Source: Clostridia bacterium
Lineage (GTDB): Bacteria; Bacillota; Clostridia; TANB77; CAG-465
NCBI GenBank assembly: GCA_045537895.1
Contig: JAZSQI010000005.1
Span: 60 to 64,059 of the forward strand
Length of the DNA: 64,000 nucleotides
Reading direction: 5' to 3'
Within the stretch, counting starts at the first letter, position 1; every line of letters begins with the position of its first letter. The translations under genes and the position numbers were made by a program. The notes beneath the pieces were generated by a model. It searched no databases, was not told the origin of the DNA, and saw only the letters and a program-made list of their open reading frames with translations. Positions 1 to 53,666 of this stretch are shown one piece after another.

Positions 1-1085
1 TTTTCTTTACTAGCTTTTGCTATATCTACTGAACTTATTTTAATAATTTCATCCCAACTTTTCTTTATACGCATATTGGGAATTTTAATATCCGGTCTTT
101 CATTTTTTATATAATCTAATACATATTTATAATAAAAATCATTATATTCATTGTTTAAAACCTCAGCCTGCCTATTTAATTTAGGTAAAGCATCTATATA
201 TTTTTTCAAAAATGTCTCGTTTTGTAATATTACTGGATATATATTAATATTATCAAGTGTTTCTCCAATCTCCATAAATGTAACATCTGTTAATGACAAA
301 AAATAATCTGTTAACTCTTTATCTCTAAAAAACTTTGTTTGTGCATATGTAGGTAAAAATCTAACTGCATCCATAACCTTATAAAACTTAGATAAATTTT
401 CTTTTTTAGGTTCTAATTTTTTATCTATACTACCATAATAATAACGTGGCTGTATTGCATCCTCATTTTCTTTTTCACGAGATACCTCACCTTTATTTTC
501 GAAAGAATCAATAATACTTAAAAAACTACCATCATCCATACTTCTCAATAATTCTTCATCTGACATTGAAAATATTTCTTTCATAATCTCTCTATCTTTA
601 TCAGTTTGAATTACATTACCTTTAAGTTGATTATATTCTTTACTTTTATACTCTTTAAAATTATGATGCTTTATATTATGTATATCTATTACTTCCTCTT
701 GAATATCTCTTGGCAACCAATATAGCAATTTATCTAGAATAAAACTTTCAGCATGCCAGGAACCTTCCATATATGATTCCAATGATTCTAATAATTTTTC
801 TTTTGGTTCATTAGCTAACATTTCTTTTGCTATTTGCTCTTCAACTGTTAATGGTAATAAATCTTTTATTTGCTCTGGTTTTAATTCTAGTATTTCTGTT
901 GCAAGCATATCCTGCATCTCTATAGAAATCCCAGCCGAAACTTTTGGATGGTTTCTTATTTTCAATATTAATTCTATTTTCTTTTCTGACTTTACGTTTG
1001 GATTTTTTAATTCATTTACTAGTTCTTCTAATAATCCTAATATCTCTGGATCTTTATCAGAGAGATCAATAATTGGATTTATCAT
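1..1085 (-). CDS. hypothetical protein, runs off the window (3' end missing)
   Basis: Manually translated stop-free frame from ATG at 1085 (MINPIIDLSDKDPEILGLLEEL...) with AGGAGG RBS upstream; absent from the ORF track because no stop lies in the window. Confidence 0.8.
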   Translation of the reverse strand, partial: MINPIIDLSDKDPEILGLLEELVNELKNPNVKSEKKIELILKIRNHPKVSAGISIEMQDMLATEILELKPEQIKDLLPLTVEEQIAKEMLANEPKEKLLESLESYMEGSWHAESFILDKLLYWLPRDIQEEVIDIHNIKHHNFKEYKSKEYNQLKGNVIQTDKDREIMKEIFSMSDEELLRSMDDGSFLSIIDSFENKGEVSREKENEDAIQPRYYYGSIDKKLEPKKENLSKFYKVMDAVRFLPTYAQTKFFRDKELTDYFLSLTDVTFMEIGETLDNINIYPVILQNETFLKKYIDALPKLNRQAEVLNNEYNDFYYKYVLDYIKNERPDIKIPNMRIKKSWDEIIKISSVDIAKASKE

Positions 1086-1156
1086 TATTCTTTCCTCCTA
1101 AAAAACGCTCTTTATACTTATATATCATATATATATATTTTTTTCAAGTATTTCAT

Positions 1157-1404
1157 TTACATTTTGTTTTTTGTTTTTTCTTTGTAATTAGTTATTAGAT
1201 TAATAATTTCTTCTACCCTTTCTTTATCAGATATTATATTTTTTATCTTACTCTCAATATTGTTTAATTCTTTTTCCTGTGAATTGTATAATGTTTTAAA
1301 GAATCTTTTGTCTTTTTGTCAACTATACAGATTTGTTCTTGATGATCATATATAAAATTTAATATAATATATTTGTCATCCCATCTCGTTATTTTTTCTA
1401 ACAT
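1157..1404 (-). pseudogene. small frameshifted hypothetical gene
   Basis: AGGAGG RBS + ATG 1404 (MLEKITRWDDKYIILNFIYDHQEQ...) stops at 1264; a coding-like -1 frame (FKTLYNSQEKELNNIESKIK...) continues to 1157. Confidence 0.45.
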
Positions 1405-1494
1405 AATATTATTCCTCCTTATGATTATGTGTGATATTAACTCTCTTTAAATATATTGTCAGCATTTTTATTAAAGCTTATTAAATTTTTTGAA

Positions 1495-2065
1495 ACCCCT
1501 CATTCTGTCGTTTCGTTTATGGTAGTCTAGTATGTAGCAGCGCTACTGCAGATGCTGTTAAATTAATAACTTGTTCATACTTGCCCTAACTTTTTACATC
1601 TACATATCCACATTCAAACTTTGCCTCCTGACACTCTTTTATTATTGTGAGTTTTCGTTACGAGATCTCACCGACACATATAGTTTTAATAGACTCTTAA
1701 AACTACTGCGGGACACTTATTGCAACGGCTGACCAAACCTATCCCTTTATTATTTTACAACGAGTTTAAGGCATCTCTCGTATATAAAAAGCACCCATAG
1801 TTTTTTAACTATGAATACTCTTTGAAATATATAATTTTTTTACTTAAAAATGCTATTTTGCATTTTTACAGGAAGAGGGAGTTATACAAACTCCCATTAA
1901 CTGCCTAAAAGTGTAACTTTTAGCGTATTTCTATTTTTTTATGTGTATATCAAATAGATATACAATTTTTTGCCTATAAATTAACTTTTTTAATATAAAA
2001 TTAAGCCCAGAGAATAAACCTCTAGGCTGTTTAAATGACTCAAGGCTTCAAAAGTTTCTTGAGTA
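1495..2065 (-). ncRNA. candidate structured non-coding RNA / cis-element (unnamed)
   Basis: No long ORF, locally higher GC, chain of inverted repeats; the stem at ~1789-1820 pairs fully only with G-U wobbles on the minus strand. Confidence 0.35.
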
Positions 2066-2226
2066 CTAATCAATATATTTATAACATATTTTCATTATAA
2101 TTCCAAGATGTTTACTAAAAATTCAAATAAATTATGGATTATTTGTTTTATACTAATTCTTATATTTTTTCGCCACAAAATCGATTCTGTGCCCTTTTTA
2201 TTATTAAGTAAATAAATTTATACCCT

Positions 2227-2769
2227 TTACGTATAAATTAACATATCTTGTCCAATATATGATTTTAATTTTTCAAATCCTGAAACTGGTATTTGATTTG
2301 TCTTGCCTTCTAGCCAACCATATAATGTGCTTGCTGATATATTGCTTTTCTTTGCAAATTCTACATATGTTAAGTTATTCTCTGATATATATCTTTTTAT
2401 TATCTCTACTGGATTGTTTTTAATAAATTTAACATAGTCTGGTATATATTTTTCTTCCATATCAAGAATGTTTATTATCTTTTCTATTGTTGATATGCTA
2501 TTTAATCTTTTTTCATCAGTTTCATATCTATGATATGCATCTACAGAAATACCAATCTTACTTGCCATCTCTTTTAAACTATAACGTTTTAACATTCTAT
2601 AATAGACAATTGCATCAGAAAATTTATTTGTTAAAAGTAATTCTTTATTAGGTTTTTCTCTTGCATCCACATACACACTTTCATTTAAAACACCTTTATT
2701 TCTAAGCTTTCTAAATAAGTTACCTATATCTTTATATAATATAAATTGTTCTTTTTTATTTGTTGTCAT
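2227..2769 (-). CDS. double helix-turn-helix (XRE-like) DNA-binding protein, copy 2
   Basis: Two HTH motifs (SLKEMASKIGISVDAYHRYE; TYVEFAKKSNISASTLYGWLEG); paralog of 5926..6468. Confidence 0.8.
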   Translation of the reverse strand: MTTNKKEQFILYKDIGNLFRKLRNKGVLNESVYVDAREKPNKELLLTNKFSDAIVYYRMLKRYSLKEMASKIGISVDAYHRYETDEKRLNSISTIEKIINILDMEEKYIPDYVKFIKNNPVEIIKRYISENNLTYVEFAKKSNISASTLYGWLEGKTNQIPVSGFEKLKSYIGQDMLIYT

Positions 2770-2912
2770 CAGACCAGTGGAGCATCTGCCAAAATTCTAA
2801 CTGTCATTCCTACCAAATCTGCCATTTCATCATATATGTTAACTACTTTAAAAAGTACATCATATCCATAAGATTTTCTTGCTACTACATCTCCTACTTT
2901 TAGCTTTAACAT
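2769..2912 (-). pseudogene. yabG: 47-aa 5' fragment resembling sporulation peptidase YabG N-terminus, copy 2
   Basis: MLKLKVGDVVARKSYGYDVLFKVV...VRILADAPLV* matches the YabG N-terminal pattern (GD.V.RKSY..D..F ... R..ADAP); GAGGTG RBS; stop overlaps the HTH start (TGATG). Confidence 0.7.
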
Positions 2913-2920
2913 TAAAAATC

Positions 2921-2960
2921 ACCTCATATCATATTTTATGATATGAGGTTAAGGTTTGTT
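2921..2960 (-). promoter_or_regulatory. sigmaK-like promoter embedded in a 13-bp-arm palindrome
   Basis: AACA-N16-CATAAAATA on the minus strand (consensus mACm-N16-CATAnnnTA); perfect IR ACCTCATATCATA-ttt-TATGATATGAGGT. Confidence 0.55.
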
Positions 2961-3010
2961 AATTTTATGTGTTTTTATAATTTCATGATTTAAAATTTAT
3001 TTATACATAG

Positions 3011-3496
3011 TTATGTATCTAATTCATAATAATACAATATGTTTGTATCTGTATCAAAAATTGCAACAGTGTAATTATATGAATGTCTATCATATATTGC
3101 TTTTTCGTCATATTTATTCATTGCTTTACTATGTCTATCCAAGAAAAACCAATATCCGTTTTCTATGATTGGCAATTCCATATTATCACCAAATTTATCT
3201 ATTGTAACTTCTTCTTGAAGCTCTGCACTCATAGGGAGCTTATTCCAATGCTCATTCCCCTTTATTTTCTTTATAAATCTTTTTGCTTGTCTATTATTAA
3301 AATAGACTCTTGAATATATTTCACCATCCATATGAAATCCTGCATGTGTACCCTTATAGTACATCTCACAAGATAATGGTACATATATTCCTATATCCAT
3401 TGCTATCCTTCTATATTCACTAACTTTAAACTCTACTACAATTAATATTATTGCTATAGCTAATATGCTAATAAATATTATTAACTTCTTGTGCAT
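3011..3496 (-). CDS. membrane-anchored hypothetical protein B2 (putative immunity-like)
   Basis: N-terminal TM; THAGFHMDGE motif; C-terminus nearly identical to 6713..7201. Confidence 0.7.
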   Translation of the reverse strand: MHKKLIIFISILAIAIILIVVEFKVSEYRRIAMDIGIYVPLSCEMYYKGTHAGFHMDGEIYSRVYFNNRQAKRFIKKIKGNEHWNKLPMSAELQEEVTIDKFGDNMELPIIENGYWFFLDRHSKAMNKYDEKAIYDRHSYNYTVAIFDTDTNILYYYELDT

Positions 3497-3499
3497 ATT

Positions 3500-4527
3500 T
3501 TACACCTCTATATCAAAGTTTATATTAACTTCAAATTCATTTAAAACACCAGTTTTCATTGAAAAGTATGCAAAATTATATAATGAACTAGAGAAAATAC
3601 TCTTTTTCACATTTTCAGTAGCCTTAAAATATTCTTTAAGAGTTTTTAATTTTGTATAATCATAAACATCATATATGTTTATATTCAAATTCCATTTTCC
3701 ATTTTGCTTGTTTCCTTTTACTTTAAATTCTGCTTTGTTAATGGAATAAAACAAATCACTTTTACTTAGAACAATAGATGTATCTTCATTTATTTGGTTT
3801 TTATTTTTCTTCTCGTACTCTTGTATTATTTTATTTAATTCATCAACAAAAATTTTATCCGATTTTATTTTTTCTACCACTTTTCCTGATGTAAAATACA
3901 AATTTTCTGGCTTTTCTTTGAGTGAATGTTGCAATAAGTCAGCCGAAAAATCAAATCCAGCATATTTTCCTCCGACTTCAATTATAGATTGCCAAAAGGC
4001 ATATTGCATAGCTTTAGACATATCTTTCTTATATTGATTTTTATTTTTATAAAAATTAAATATAAAACTAGCACCTGTTACTAACAATTTGAATTCATTT
4101 ATATCAAGTTCACCATTTTTTACATTACTAATAAATTCTTCAAATTTGATTTGCATTTTATACAAATCATAAGCTTCTTTTAATATTATTTTCCTCACAC
4201 TTTTAATTTTTTCAAATATAGTTACTTTTTTGATGTTATTTATATCTTTATTTACTTGTTCCTTTATTTTATCAAAGTTGCCATATTTTAACATATCTAA
4301 ATATCTATATGTTAAGTATCTATCCGTAATCCATATCTTTTGATTTTTATTTAACCCTGTTATTCCTGTTTTCTGCATTACACTATTATATAACTCTTTT
4401 TCTTTATACTTTGATTTGCTAGGTTGTTCCAATTTAAGAAATGTATATATATATTATCTATACATCCATTACCAAATGTATCTTTACATTTTTTCATATC
4501 TCTTTTACAAAGCAGACACTCTTTCAT
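3500..4527 (-). pseudogene. gene A2, frameshifted by one extra TA in a (TA)n tract
   Basis: Start MKECLLCKRDMKKCKDTFGNGC at 4527 is identical to A1; (TA)5 at 4444-4453 versus (TA)4 in A1; span 1028 nt = 3n+2. Confidence 0.8.
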
Positions 4528-49722: not shown

Positions 49723-50844
49723 TTATTTCTTTTTTTGAACCACTTCAACATAGCAAATATCTTTTTCTTCTAAATATTTTTTATTACATCTGTTATTGCC
49801 AACTACATAATTGACTTGATTTGAAGGAACAATTAATTTTAAAATTGTTGTTGTTTTATTTTCTTTATTCCTATCAATTTTATTACCTATACGCCTTTTT
49901 TCCATTTTGTTTTCTATATACTCTAACATTATTTTTGATAAAATTCTTTCCCTATAATTATCACATACAGGTCCTATTATCTTACTATTTTTGACAGATA
50001 TTTCTTCAGTAGTTTGCAAACCTACTCTAATAACATTAACTCCTCTTTTTATACATTCTTTATACATCATTGTTGCTCTATTTATTGCATCTTCTAATTC
50101 TAATGCTTTATATTTTTTTGTTTTATACATATTAAGAAGTTCGCTATCTTCTAAAACATAAACAGGATATATTCTAATTATATCCGGTTTTAGATTTAAA
50201 CTTTCTAGTACTGTGTTTTTTTCTTTCTCATAAGTGCTACCAGGCAAGCCACACATAAGTTGATGACCTAAAACAAAGCCTCTTTCCTTAATTAAATTAG
50301 ACGCTTTAACAACATCTGCTTTTGTATGTCCCCTTTTTGATAAAATTAATACCTCTTCATCCATTGATTGAACACCAAGTTCAATAATTTCTACATTGTA
50401 TTTTTTTAACACTGCAAGTATCTTTTCATTTATATAATCAGGTCTAGTAGAAATTCTAACTGAACTAACAACCTTTTTATCTATAAATTCTTTAACTATC
50501 TCTAAATATTCTATTTGCTGTTTTTCTTCAATGCCTGTAAAACTACCTCCAAAAAAAGCAACTTCAACTTTTTTTCCATCTTTTTTATATTTATTTAGTG
50601 CGTCATTAATTTGGTTTCTTACGTCACTTGCAGAAACTATTTTCTGCTGACCACTAATCTTCCTTTGATTACAAAAAACACATTCATTTTTACATCCTAC
50701 ATGAGGTATAAAAATAGGAATTGTTCTCTTGTTTTCCTTTGGTATATTTAATCCTAATTCTTTTTTTCCATCTATTTTAATTTTATATGTTTTTAAGCGC
50801 CTCTTCTGCTGCTTTTTGTTGTGCTTCTTTTTTTGATTTACCAT
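49723..50844 (-). CDS. Elp3-like radical SAM protein (start uncertain)
   Basis: IPIFIPHVGCKNECVFCNQ, FFGGSFT, STRPD; usual neighbour of rnc in clostridia. Confidence 0.85.
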   Translation of the reverse strand: MVNQKKKHNKKQQKRRLKTYKIKIDGKKELGLNIPKENKRTIPIFIPHVGCKNECVFCNQRKISGQQKIVSASDVRNQINDALNKYKKDGKKVEVAFFGGSFTGIEEKQQIEYLEIVKEFIDKKVVSSVRISTRPDYINEKILAVLKKYNVEIIELGVQSMDEEVLILSKRGHTKADVVKASNLIKERGFVLGHQLMCGLPGSTYEKEKNTVLESLNLKPDIIRIYPVYVLEDSELLNMYKTKKYKALELEDAINRATMMYKECIKRGVNVIRVGLQTTEEISVKNSKIIGPVCDNYRERILSKIMLEYIENKMEKRRIGNKIDRNKENKTTTILKLIVPSNQVNYVVGNNRCNKKYLEEKDICYVEVVQKKK

Positions 50845-51472
50845 TTCCTTCTCCCATTTTTATATTATTAACATAAACTTCAACATAAAAAACTTTATCA
50901 TGAGCTGGTCCTTCTTCTCTTACCAATTCATACTTTATATCCTTATTCTTTTCTTTTTGCACTTCCTCTTGAAGCCTTGTTTTGTAATCTTTATTTTCCG
51001 TTACATTATTTATTTCATCTTCTATAGTTTTTTCAAGCAATTTAAGGCATATTTTTTCTGCTACGTCAAATCCAGCATCTAAATATATAGCACCAAGAAT
51101 TGCTTCGAACATATCTGCAAGCATTGCATCTTTTTTACTGTTTTTAATCTTAAGTTCACATCTTCCTACTTTTAAGCATTCTTCTAAATTATATTCTTTT
51201 ATAACTGTGCAAAGTGATTTTTCACATACTATTCTAGCTCTTCTTTTTGTTAGCATACCTTCTTTTTCATCAGGCAATTTATTATATAAATATTTTGATA
51301 TTATATGTTCTAATATAGCATCCCCTAAAAATTCAATTCTTTCATTATATGCATCTAGATTGCTATCGCCTTTATCATGAGCGTATGATTTATGCGTTAT
51401 AGCCATATTAGCTAATTTTTTATTCTTAAATGTATAACCTATTCTTAATTCTAATTTTTCTATATTTAACAT
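50783..51472 (-). CDS. rnc: ribonuclease III
   Basis: NERIEFLGDA, ADMFEA, dsRBD (KTRLQE...GPAH...KKEAQQ). Confidence 0.96.
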   Translation of the reverse strand: MLNIEKLELRIGYTFKNKKLANMAITHKSYAHDKGDSNLDAYNERIEFLGDAILEHIISKYLYNKLPDEKEGMLTKRRARIVCEKSLCTVIKEYNLEECLKVGRCELKIKNSKKDAMLADMFEAILGAIYLDAGFDVAEKICLKLLEKTIEDEINNVTENKDYKTRLQEEVQKEKNKDIKYELVREEGPAHDKVFYVEVYVNNIKMGEGNGKSKKEAQQKAAEEALKNI

Positions 51473-51550
51473 TTCTTTCTCCTATCATGTATATATAATT
51501 TTACCATAGTATAAGCTTTCTTTCAACCATACTTACACAAAATAAAACAA

Positions 51551-51576
51551 TAACCACCGGTCAAAACCGATGGTTA
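51551..51576 (-). terminator. terminator after the precursor peptide
   Basis: TAACCACCGG...CCGATGGTTA stem followed by a T-rich tail on the minus strand. Confidence 0.65.
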
Positions 51577-51590
51577 TGTTTCATTGAGAC

Positions 51591-51704
51591 TTAGTCTCCG
51601 TCCACGCAATTGCAATCAGTGCACTGACTACACTGTCCACCACTTGACTGATCCGGGATGCAATCACTTACAAGGAACATTTCTGTTGCTGCATACAAGA
51701 ACAT
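51591..51704 (-). CDS. putative RiPP precursor peptide (37 aa, Cys/Asp-rich)
   Basis: AGGAGG RBS in the last codons of the radical SAM gene; MFLYAATEMFLVSDCIPDQSSGGQCSQCTDCNCVDGD*. Confidence 0.8.
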   Translation of the reverse strand: MFLYAATEMFLVSDCIPDQSSGGQCSQCTDCNCVDGD

Positions 51705-51706
51705 AG

Positions 51707-53116
51707 TTATACCTCCTTCTTTTTATTAGTATAATATATGGTCATCGCATATATGCGAATCACATCAGGTAAACATGATTTGTACAAATTACAGTATGGA
51801 GAAATATGCATAAATGTTTTATATGTAGCATATGTTTGCAAAGGACATGCTCCGGCACAACTGTGCTTCCAAACACACTTGTTACACTCTAAAACATCAC
51901 AAGCTGATGTCTTTGATATATCAGAAAAAATAGTATCAATATCCGATATAATATCCGTCAAATCTGATATGTTTGATTTAGGACATTCAAGTCCTAAACT
52001 ACATGAACCAACAGAACCATCTTGTCCTATTGCAAAGAAATTTTTTCCGGCAGCACAAGCCCTTCTTACAGGTTTTGAAAATGATACATCACCAAATTGG
52101 AAGAACCATCCTAAATCACCATTATTTAGAGCATTTTTCATTATTTCAAAACATTCTTTAAGCACTTCTATACAATGAGATTCATCTTTCAAAATTGCAG
52201 GTCTTCCTGTTTGAGTATCACGCTCAAAAGAAAATCTGAAGAATATTTTTTTGTCTATCATAAATTTAGTTAACTCAGGTAATCCTTCTAAGTTTTCATT
52301 TGTAACTGTTACCATGATAGAGGGTCTTATACCTTCATTAATAAGATTATCTACTCCTCTCATTGCTAATTTATAGCTGCCTGTCCCATCTGCCTTTATT
52401 CTATTTTGGTCATGGTAGTTTTCAATACCGTCAATAGAAATTCCTACAGATATGTGGTTTTCGGCTATATACTTTGCAATCTCTGGTGTAATTAATGTTC
52501 CATTTGTTGGAATTACATAACGAACATTAATATCTCCACAATTTTTTAAGCAATATGATACAATCTCTTTTATCGTATCAAATCTCATAAGTGGCTCCCC
52601 ACCAACAAGCATTAAACACAGCTTTTTATAGTTATGCTTTCTACATGAATCAAACATTTTATCTATAGACTCATACATAACACAACTGCTCATACTTGAG
52701 TGTGACTTATGAATATAACAATACTTGCATTTAAGATTACAATCATTTGTTATATGAAGCCAACACGTAAGCTCACGATTCCATTTAGTTTTTTCATAAA
52801 CAATATTAGGAGTATTTAACATTTGCTTTTCTACCAAGGAACTTATAATTGCTTTTGCCATTTCAGCTTCATTACCACAAAAACCCATTTCATTAATAAC
52901 CGTTTGCATATTTTTCTTTCCATCAAACATTCTTATTAAATCTACTATTTTTTTCCCTACAGTAAGCACTCCTCCATAACCTACAGGATTATACAGCAAG
53001 TATACATCCTCATTATACCGGTTTTCTTGCTTAGGTATAGCAAGGTCAATCAGTAGCTGCTTTGGAACAGTAATAATACTTTTTTCATCTAACATTAATT
53101 TATTTTCTCCTCTCAT
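51707..53116 (-). CDS. radical SAM/SPASM peptide maturase with N-terminal RRE-like domain (likely start 53095)
   Basis: CNLKCKYC, GGEP, SPASM Cys set (CAAG...SC...CNKC..KHSCAGAC...YC); ~110-aa PqqD-like N-terminus. Confidence 0.88.
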   Translation of the reverse strand: MRGENKLMLDEKSIITVPKQLLIDLAIPKQENRYNEDVYLLYNPVGYGGVLTVGKKIVDLIRMFDGKKNMQTVINEMGFCGNEAEMAKAIISSLVEKQMLNTPNIVYEKTKWNRELTCWLHITNDCNLKCKYCYIHKSHSSMSSCVMYESIDKMFDSCRKHNYKKLCLMLVGGEPLMRFDTIKEIVSYCLKNCGDINVRYVIPTNGTLITPEIAKYIAENHISVGISIDGIENYHDQNRIKADGTGSYKLAMRGVDNLINEGIRPSIMVTVTNENLEGLPELTKFMIDKKIFFRFSFERDTQTGRPAILKDESHCIEVLKECFEIMKNALNNGDLGWFFQFGDVSFSKPVRRACAAGKNFFAIGQDGSVGSCSLGLECPKSNISDLTDIISDIDTIFSDISKTSACDVLECNKCVWKHSCAGACPLQTYATYKTFMHISPYCNLYKSCLPDVIRIYAMTIYYTNKKKEV

Positions 53117-53186
53117 ATATTATATTTTTAATTATATTTCTCATTTAGCTTATTAAAACTAAACATTCGTAAGTTACTGTTTCGCA

Positions 53187-53215
53187 ATTATATCACATTT
53201 ACATAATTTTTTCAA
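53187..53215 (-). promoter_or_regulatory. sigmaA promoter of the radical SAM-peptide unit
   Basis: TTGAAA-N17-TATAAT with extended TG. Confidence 0.65.
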
Positions 53216-53281
53216 GTAAAATAGAAAAAGAGCTCTATATAAAAGCTCCTTAAACTATTTTTTAGTCTTACAACATATATT

Positions 53282-53461
53282 TTAGCTTGTAAATACAGCT
53301 GCCATCCATATTAACACAAATAATGTTATAAGTGCTAAAATTATTTTTGCGTTAGATATTTTTATAGATATAATGCCTTTTTTCTTAAAAAAATAATCCG
53401 CTATGTACATTGTTATTATTGATAATAAATTAATCAAAAACATAATAAACCACAAAAGCAT
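53282..53461 (-). CDS. small two-TM protein (59 aa)
   Basis: GGAGG RBS + ATG; MLLWFIMFLINLLSIITMYIADYFFKKKG...; below the ORF-track cutoff. Confidence 0.55.
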   Translation of the reverse strand: MLLWFIMFLINLLSIITMYIADYFFKKKGIISIKISNAKIILALITLFVLIWMAAVFTS

Positions 53462-53666
53462 TTTAAATTCCTCCCACTACACATATTAATATTTTCCAAT
53501 CTTTTTATTTAAAAAGACATTTATTTTTAAAGCTTATACATTATACTCTCCCTATTTTATTTTGTCAATAAAAAAGTTGGTATATAGACTAAGTCATTCG
53601 GTCAGTCAGTAAAAAAGCCAATATATAGAATATATCTATATACTAGCTTTTATTTTTATTTACAAA

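Follow-up and report, generated by a model that had tools for sequence, protein, structure and literature searches.

The window, as the whole 64,000-nt stretch of contig JAZSQI010000005.1 from a Clostridia bacterium is called here, was found to carry a small cassette of two genes at positions 51550..53215, counted from its first letter. The cassette is probably a unit for a ribosomally synthesised peptide that is modified after translation (RiPP). Under its own promoter it encodes a maturase of the radical S-adenosylmethionine (SAM) superfamily, directly followed by a cysteine-rich peptide of 37 aa that is most likely cross-linked through thioether bonds by the adjoining enzyme. The logic of the cassette and the enzyme superfamily are known ones; the enzyme clade and the precursor motif are its own.

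The precursor peptide

The peptide gene (51591..51704, minus strand) has its ATG at 51704, 2 nt past the TAA stop codon of the maturase gene (51709..51707), and is preceded by a ribosome-binding site (RBS), GGAGG (51712..51716, minus strand), that lies inside the final maturase codons. Its product, which reads MFLYAATEMFLVSDCIPDQSSGGQCSQCTDCNCVDGD, is strongly acidic, with no lysine, arginine or histidine, five aspartates (14, 18, 30, 35 and 37) and five cysteines (15, 25, 28, 31 and 33). It includes two overlapping CX3D motifs, C31-x3-D35 and C33-x3-D37, and a CxxCxxCxC run. The position of the gene 2 nt after the maturase stop, its RBS, the sequence and all of these counts agree with an earlier reading of the DNA from its letters alone (the original prediction).

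A profile made from five natural copies of the peptide, headed by a 51-aa relative, was searched against 5.8 billion proteins and retrieved 11 peptide clusters of 35–39 aa, all with E <=4.5e-12. Alignment of these with the copy from another cassette-bearing genome, G053, gave 12 variants in which 16 positions are invariant (M1, F2, C15, Q19, G22, Q24, C25, S26, C28, T29, D30, C31, N32, C33, V34 and D35). Position 18 is D or G, position 14 is D, N or Q, and D37 is found in 11 of the 12, so that the C31-D35 pair is invariant and C33-x3-D37 is present in 11/12. The N terminus follows the pattern MF(I/L/V/A)(Y/F/L), and residues 5–11 are freely variable. In six pairwise comparisons of four sequences, the proportion of non-synonymous differences (pN) over codons 12–37 was 0.06–0.10 as against 0.38–1.07 for synonymous differences (pS), which corresponds to a pN/pS of ~0.1 for the core, and pN over codons 1–11 was 0.29–0.46. 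The peptide core is under strong purifying selection. As the 12 variants are conserved, core pN lies far below pS and the gene stands after the maturase gene in 3/3 genomes that carry the latter, the 37-aa peptide is a real gene. No match to it was found in Pfam, nor in NCBIfam at E <=1, where the SCIFF peptide model was included.

A double-glycine leader, suggested by S-G-G/A before Q24, was ruled out, as no C39 peptidase was found in the genome and G-Q-C is kept as a part of the core across a clade of distant relatives described below.

The maturase

The longest reading frame of the maturase gene, from the first ATG, spans 53116..51707 (469 aa). Translation probably starts at the second ATG, at 53095, giving a protein of 462 aa (51707..53095, minus strand), because the close homologues all begin at this position (M8) and the sequence AGAGGAG precedes it. 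The protein matches Pfam Radical_SAM with 73.4 bits (cut-off 29.5, E 3.2e-20), and Fer4_12 also matches. The translation contains the CxxxCxxC motif of the radical SAM cluster as CNLKCKYC (C126, C130 and C133; 52718..52741, minus strand), which is invariant in all 21 aligned homologues.

The seven-cysteine SPASM motif has the form C-x9-15-G-x4-C, gap, C-x2-C-x5-C-x3-C, gap, C. The C-terminal part of the maturase (51791..52057, minus strand) fits it with C354-x12-G-x4-C372, C411-x2-C414-x5-C420-x3-C424 and then C442, all seven cysteines being invariant in 21/21 sequences. An AlphaFold2 model calculated on the homologue alignment had a mean predicted local distance difference test score (pLDDT) of 89.6, and three strands and three helices were modelled over residues 22–96 in the 469-aa numbering (52829..53053, minus strand). 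On this model, the N-terminal domain would be a PqqD-like RiPP recognition element (RRE) for leader binding. The closest solved relative by sequence is the thioether-forming enzyme CteB (5wgg, E 2.9e-26), and the closest by fold (Foldseek) are CteB 5wgg, TigE 8vpo and the anaerobic sulfatase maturase (anSME); the Foldseek alignment with CteB spans 459 columns, N-terminal domain included. Since the Pfam PqqD and SPASM models gave no match to the maturase at E <=1, both domain assignments are drawn from motifs and fold. An RRE-bearing radical SAM/SPASM enzyme had been proposed originally, and the CxxxCxxC motif, the seven SPASM cysteines and the RRE-type fold bear this out. In a search of the ESM Atlas the best score, 0.80, was at chance level.

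Pairing of the two genes

The peptide gene directly follows the maturase gene, at a distance of 2 nt, in all three maturase-bearing genomes (that of the window, G052 and G053), where adjacency was read directly and which all belong to one genus. The DNA pattern of the peptide core has a single occurrence in the genome of the window, where the peptide is thus single copy. Of the other five genomes in the genus, exactly the two that carry the maturase have it, again once each. The RBS of the peptide gene is likewise kept in G052 and G053 as well as in the metagenome contig L084. For the close homologues P0002-P0019, P0021 and P0022, pairing was judged indirectly, from equal longest-contig sizes, and four of the ten non-window peptide clusters share this size with a maturase cluster (19833, 4849, 3655 and 7070). 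The conserved peptide that the original prediction expected beside maturase homologues was therefore found there.

Two metagenome contigs hold the peptide in other surroundings. Region 285-2092 of L084 (minus strand) encodes, in this order, two small peptides that end in C-x-N-G-C-Q-R-A-x-G-S-P-T-G, a different type of radical SAM protein (406 aa), 56 aa left over from the maturase N terminus and an intact peptide of the 37-aa family; either the cassette has decayed here or the peptide has been adopted by a different enzyme. Contig L083 encodes a 51-aa variant with the core GQCAECGPCTDCNCVDGDCCENY, followed on the same strand (1186-2138 for both) by a 250-aa open reading frame (ORF) that has an HExxH motif and no Pfam or NCBIfam match. 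This contig ends 325 nt upstream, and no maturase is in view.

Predicted docking and proposed modification

A complex of maturase and peptide was predicted with a score of 0.73, compared with 0.01 for the best of three controls. The mark that this score passes is reached by 116/157 solved complexes and by 2/215 mismatched pairs, counts that apply only approximately here because custom alignments were used. The runs agreed in at least 5% of contacts, with a partner pLDDT of at least 40 but below 50 in at least one run. In the predicted complex, peptide residues 1–7 contact strand 48–54 and helix 83–97 of the RRE-like domain and residues 460–465 of the maturase, and residues 32–33 lie near 347–351 of the SPASM region. 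As maturase–leader complexes have already been solved (e.g. 5v1t and 9gm3), passing the mark may reflect likeness only. The prediction supports the standard recognition logic of RiPP systems.

In the mechanism proposed, the 37-aa peptide would be the substrate of the maturase encoded just upstream. Its N-terminal MF(I/L/V/A)(Y/F/L) stretch would dock as a strand on the RRE domain, and this would place the C-terminal core V12-D37, with the five cysteines, D30 and D35, in the radical SAM/SPASM active site. The steps beyond docking are modelled on PapB. Reductive cleavage of SAM would generate a 5'-deoxyadenosyl radical that takes a hydrogen from an acceptor residue, and the resulting carbon radical would join a cysteine sulfur held at the auxiliary cluster. 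Each intramolecular thioether would lower the mass by 2 Da, and up to five may be possible. The likeliest acceptors would be the invariant aspartate side chains, as for PapB and QhpD, with T29 and N32 as possible further ones. By the same analogy the chemistry could be of the PapB type at CX3D. The linked atom could be either an alpha or a beta carbon. The residue four positions past each cysteine is invariant or nearly so (C15-Q19, C25-T29, C28-N32, C31-D35 and C33-D37), which does not single out the acceptors, because almost the entire core is invariant.

Relationship to characterised maturases

Among NCBIfam models, PapB (NF047865) matched the maturase first, with 153.6 bits against a cut-off of 340, followed by QhpD (TIGR03906; 125.3 bits against 453, residues 53–458 aligned), DynA (118 bits) and CcpM; SCIFF (TIGR03974) scored lower, at 109.6 bits against 425, and every one of these scores falls far short of its family cut-off. 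PapB is described in NCBIfam as a ranthipeptide maturase and SCIFF as a maturase that forms thioether cross-links. For comparison, an enzyme of the PapB family (L022) reached 397.9 bits on the PapB model, and distant enzymes of the window's clade reached 131–165 bits.

A careful IQ-TREE run on 44 sequences, rooted at the midpoint and including a single PapB-family reference, united 11 close homologues, P0021, P0022 and seven distant enzymes in a clade of 20 rows with support of 100/99 and a stem of 1.58. An anSME/DynA-like sequence joined this clade at 90/84, and the program warned of long-branch attraction. The family is uncharacterised and stands outside the three library-named families that were compared (PapB, QhpD and SCIFF). 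Given the separate clade and the scores below cut-off, homology predicts the chemistry of the maturase weakly. The original prediction of a PapB-like enzyme thus holds as far as PapB is the top NCBIfam match, but the score is less than half of the cut-off and the enzyme belongs to a different, strongly supported clade.

With PapB and its substrate PapA (freyrasin), the window's system shares an RRE–radical SAM–SPASM enzyme and an acidic, Cys/Asp-rich peptide containing C-x3-D. It differs in that the peptide gene lies downstream of the enzyme gene, in a leader of at most ~11–14 residues, and in the motifs: PapA has six in-line CX3D/E units, whereas the window's peptide has two overlapping units, one of them invariant.

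SCIFF systems (ScfA/ScfB, CteA/CteB) are similar in being minimal cassettes of two genes in genomes of the Clostridia type with a short peptide rich in cysteines, and CteB is the best solved relative of the maturase both by sequence and by fold. SCIFF cassettes are not known to carry a protease or exporter. None was found among the cassette genes here either, and the search of the genome for a C39 peptidase was negative, in keeping with the self-contained enzyme and precursor unit first proposed. Unlike the six-cysteine SCIFF peptide, the window's peptide has five cysteines in 37 residues and is encoded after the enzyme. The low SCIFF score of the maturase and the lack of a SCIFF-model match for the peptide confirm that the system is unlike SCIFF, as had been stated.

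QhpD, which acts with QhpC in the maturation of quinohemoprotein amine dehydrogenase, makes Cys-to-Asp/Glu thioethers. It gave the second-best profile match, with a near full-length alignment that includes the N-terminal domain, but it falls in a separate clade, and no dehydrogenase genes accompany the window's cassette, which has rnc on one side and a small membrane ORF and then acpP on the other.

The position of the maturase in the tree could also point to a sactipeptide, made by the same cassette but with sactionine bonds from cysteine sulfur to an alpha carbon. In PMC10288494, SCIFF, QhpD and PapB are called "highly similar to one another" and sactisynthases are described as diverse in sequence; the window's maturase lies outside the SCIFF/QhpD/PapB group. 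In the same paper, the six new groups of precursors for which no enzyme had been characterised were all predicted to be sactisynthase substrates. PapB and QhpD nevertheless outrank the sactisynthase models, of which RumMC scored 103 bits and AlbA and SkfB were not among the top 25, and the invariant acidic residues beside the cysteines resemble acceptors of the PapA/QhpC type. Sactionine bonds are regarded as unlikely, and side-chain (ranthionine) bonds as the more probable choice.

Distant relatives in other phyla

Close homologues of the maturase comprise 18 full-length clusters with 54–74% identity and two fragments, after which identity drops to 40%, 35% and <=28%. With the single protein as query, the genome collection yielded no relative. 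With the alignment as query it yielded only distant ones, at 27–31% identity and with E values between 1e-50 and 1e-67; they belong to Patescibacteria, a Pseudomonadales metagenome-assembled genome (MAG) and Chloroflexota, and each has a Cys/Asp-rich element. The common element across the clade is G-Q-C and/or D-C-x-C, not CX3D.

At L004 a 38-aa peptide with the C-terminal end YGQCDACGNDNNLE, and at L005 a 50-aa peptide ending in CQDDCACENNN, are encoded immediately upstream of the maturase. L010 has a separate 70-aa peptide containing GQCDCNCDCACA, and the N terminus of its enzyme has CxC motifs too. In five of five further Chloroflexota loci, the D-C-x-C motif lies within the ORF of the maturase itself with no intervening stop codon (L006 3842-5383, L007 3292-4791, L008 3791-5287, L009 3830-5098 and L026 3833-5263). 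It precedes the RRE, or in L009 the radical SAM core, and examples are DCDCEDCACVDYN, CDCDDCDCPYT (twice), QCNCAC, EDCAC and GDCAC. These ORFs look like fusions of substrate and enzyme.

The upstream neighbour of L007, L009 and L026 is a protein of ~900–1040 aa with AAA_16/NACHT and TPR domains. In the Patescibacteria MAG, the peptide–maturase pair of L004 (region 369-4240) adjoins a large serine recombinase with Resolvase, Recombinase and Zn_ribbon_recom domains and is flanked on both sides by a repeated segment that translates to GALAALPLKYSSNFFVKRPQ; the region looks like a small mobile element.

The shared element raises the idea that the clade defines a new RiPP class in which G-Q-C / D-C-x-C is cross-linked in an undescribed pattern, for example with rings that overlap and link a cluster of four cysteines to Thr, Asn and Asp. 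In such a class the substrate gene would follow that of the enzyme (here) or precede it (Patescibacteria and the Pseudomonadales MAG), or the substrate would be fused to the enzyme N terminus (5/5 Chloroflexota loci). The idea is tentative and has a minor share of the likelihood. If it is true, a radical SAM maturase of the fused form would modify itself, a logic comparable to that of the borosin methyltransferase-core fusions.

The motif built into the N terminus of the Chloroflexota maturases, and the CxC motifs of both enzyme and peptide at L010, could also be read as signs that the peptide is no substrate but a small partner that binds a metal or an Fe-S cluster for the maturase, or that the modification is of a type other than a thioether (for example C-C or C-O links, epimerisation or decarboxylation). 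The spacing CxxCxxCxC, as read from the sequence, resembles that of cluster-binding sites, the maturase clade is distinct and uncharacterised, and DynA, a non-thioether enzyme, is the third NCBIfam match. Yet an RRE-type domain with predicted docking of the peptide N terminus would be standard substrate recognition, and the strict conservation of D30, N32 and D35 is not needed for metal binding alone. To our knowledge, thioethers are the product wherever a radical SAM/SPASM system with a Cys-rich peptide substrate has been characterised. These alternatives are taken to be rather improbable, and a thioether cross-linked peptide remains the preferred explanation.

Several observations weigh against this explanation. 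The maturase is below the cut-offs of PapB, QhpD and SCIFF and is a member of no characterised family, and loci that do pass the SCIFF or QhpD cut-offs score 264–299 bits on the PapB model. In the tree, the clade of 20 rows is separate from the group formed by SCIFF, QhpD and PapB (85/84). The intact peptide gene of L084 stands beside a maturase reduced to a remnant, and the in-frame motif of the five Chloroflexota maturases is less readily seen as a substrate than a peptide of its own would be. Lastly, of the CX3D pair only C31-x3-D35 is invariant, and distant members of the clade have no CX3D motif. The original prediction had treated the CX3D motifs as the key feature; both are present, but with C33-x3-D37 absent from one variant in 12 and CX3D absent from the distant clade, their importance is not established.

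Cassette signals and insertion

All cassette elements were located on the minus strand by the ORF, promoter and terminator scans. A promoter-like site (53187..53215, minus strand), TTGAAA-17 nt-TG-TATAAT, matches at 11 of 12 positions and is followed by a 5' untranslated region with the RBS AGAGGAG ahead of the ATG at 53095 (53096..53186, minus strand), as delimited in an alignment of the upstream regions of the three genomes. The promoter scan as a whole showed no enrichment, with 14 sites seen and 15.5 expected. At the other end, a terminator-like hairpin with a 12-bp stem and a T run (51550..51577, minus strand) begins 14 nt past the peptide stop codon; the scan found two such hairpins where 0.5 were expected, and the hairpin sequence is not conserved in the other cassette genomes according to the downstream alignment. 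Promoter, maturase gene, peptide gene and terminator are hence all present where they had been placed at the outset.

The cassette occupies three different chromosomal sites in the three genomes. The window's copy has rnc on one side and, on the other, a small membrane ORF located after acpP; the G052 copy is flanked by a 353-aa ORF and another radical SAM gene, and the G053 copy by an acyl-CoA-ligase-like ORF and a mutS-like ORF, as read from the translations. About 120 nt upstream of the maturase gene, with the -35 and extended -10 boxes included, are conserved among the three despite the differing flanking genes, and conservation past the peptide stop codon is zero. The moving unit therefore consists of promoter, maturase gene and peptide gene, ~1.7 kb in all. 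In four relatives the distance from acpP to rnc is 109–494 bp, as against 2194 bp in the window, which marks the cassette there as inserted into this gap; the locus fetched for a fifth relative (G055) contained no acpP. The original prediction placed the unit between these two genes, and the gap comparison upholds the insertion, but the unit does not stand directly next to acpP, a 59-aa ORF (53461..53282) intervening. The ends of the cassette show only short AT-rich repeats (<=26 nt, 73–93% matching) and no convincing terminal repeats, and the window's cassette has no recombinase gene.

The intervening ORF (53282..53461, minus strand) reads as a two-helix membrane protein and has no family match. 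It has a promoter-like site (53568..53540) matching at 12/12 positions and a terminator-like hairpin (53251..53227) of its own, and in G052 a similar ORF of 68 aa sits between acpP and rnc with no cassette there. With its own signals, its absence from the G052 and G053 cassettes and this native counterpart, it was ruled out as a member of the cassette.

On the other side, the end of rnc (50783-51472, minus strand) overlaps by 62 nt with a downstream 373-aa radical SAM ORF (49723-50844, minus strand) when the latter is read from its first start; its actual start probably lies later than listed. The pair formed by rnc and this ORF is conserved in five relatives.

Distribution

Within the window's family the maturase was detected in 3 of the 79 genomes, and within the order in 3 of the 401 that were sampled. 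The three carriers are three species of one genus, in which 3/6 genomes are positive, and have genomes of 1.1–1.3 Mb. Gut metagenomes of two studies contained 0.23–0.32 of the sampled words. A SCIFF maturase above the cut-off was found in 0/79 genomes of the family, whereas a strong match of the PapB/SCIFF type is present in 321/401 sampled genomes of the phylum, and seven of eight such loci tested pass the SCIFF cut-off.

These data also bear on whether the peptide might give rise to a cofactor of protein origin or to a cross-linked enzyme subunit, as with QhpC/QhpD, pyrroloquinoline quinone or mycofactocin, in place of a free product. The rank of QhpD among the profiles, with residues 53–458 aligned, and the lack of export or protease genes would suit such a role. 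No dehydrogenase or partner gene is present in the cassette, though, its neighbours differ across the three genomes, and presence in half of the genus fits an accessory trait; a cofactor or subunit precursor is thus very improbable, and a thioether cross-linked RiPP is again preferred.

Novelty and significance

In the available part of the RODEO sacti/ranthipeptide supplement of PMC10288494, a precursor with the core CTDCNCPDGDCC is listed twice, in group 87, labelled 'Other Uncharacterized'. It shares C-T-D-C-N-C-x-D-G-D with the window's peptide and the L083 variant, and differs from the former in its greater overall length, a leader of typical length, an extra CC tail and two radical SAM accessions per row. 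The window's core strings CSQCTD and DCNCVD had no match each in that part of the supplement. Relatives of the peptide have therefore already been picked up by genome mining, where they were left uncharacterised. The claim of a new family stands in so far as the maturase forms a clade of its own and the precursor has its own motif, but a relative is already present in the published list (PMC10288494). Among the matches listed in a search of the ranthipeptide literature, no title or start of an abstract names the window's family.

Radical SAM/SPASM enzymes that staple Cys-rich peptides provide stable thioether macrocycles as well as new radical chemistry. The system in the window combines a recognition sequence of ~7 residues with a compact core of 26 residues that holds five cysteines, and with two genes on 1.7 kb and a simple expected readout (a mass drop of 2 Da for each link, and fewer free thiols) it makes a tractable test case. 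Should the fused variants in Chloroflexota prove to be true substrates, their interest would be wider. For the organisms that carry it, the presence of the cassette in very small genomes, in a family without an above-cut-off SCIFF maturase, raises the question of the role of the peptide, with a signal, a metal binder and an antagonist as candidates.

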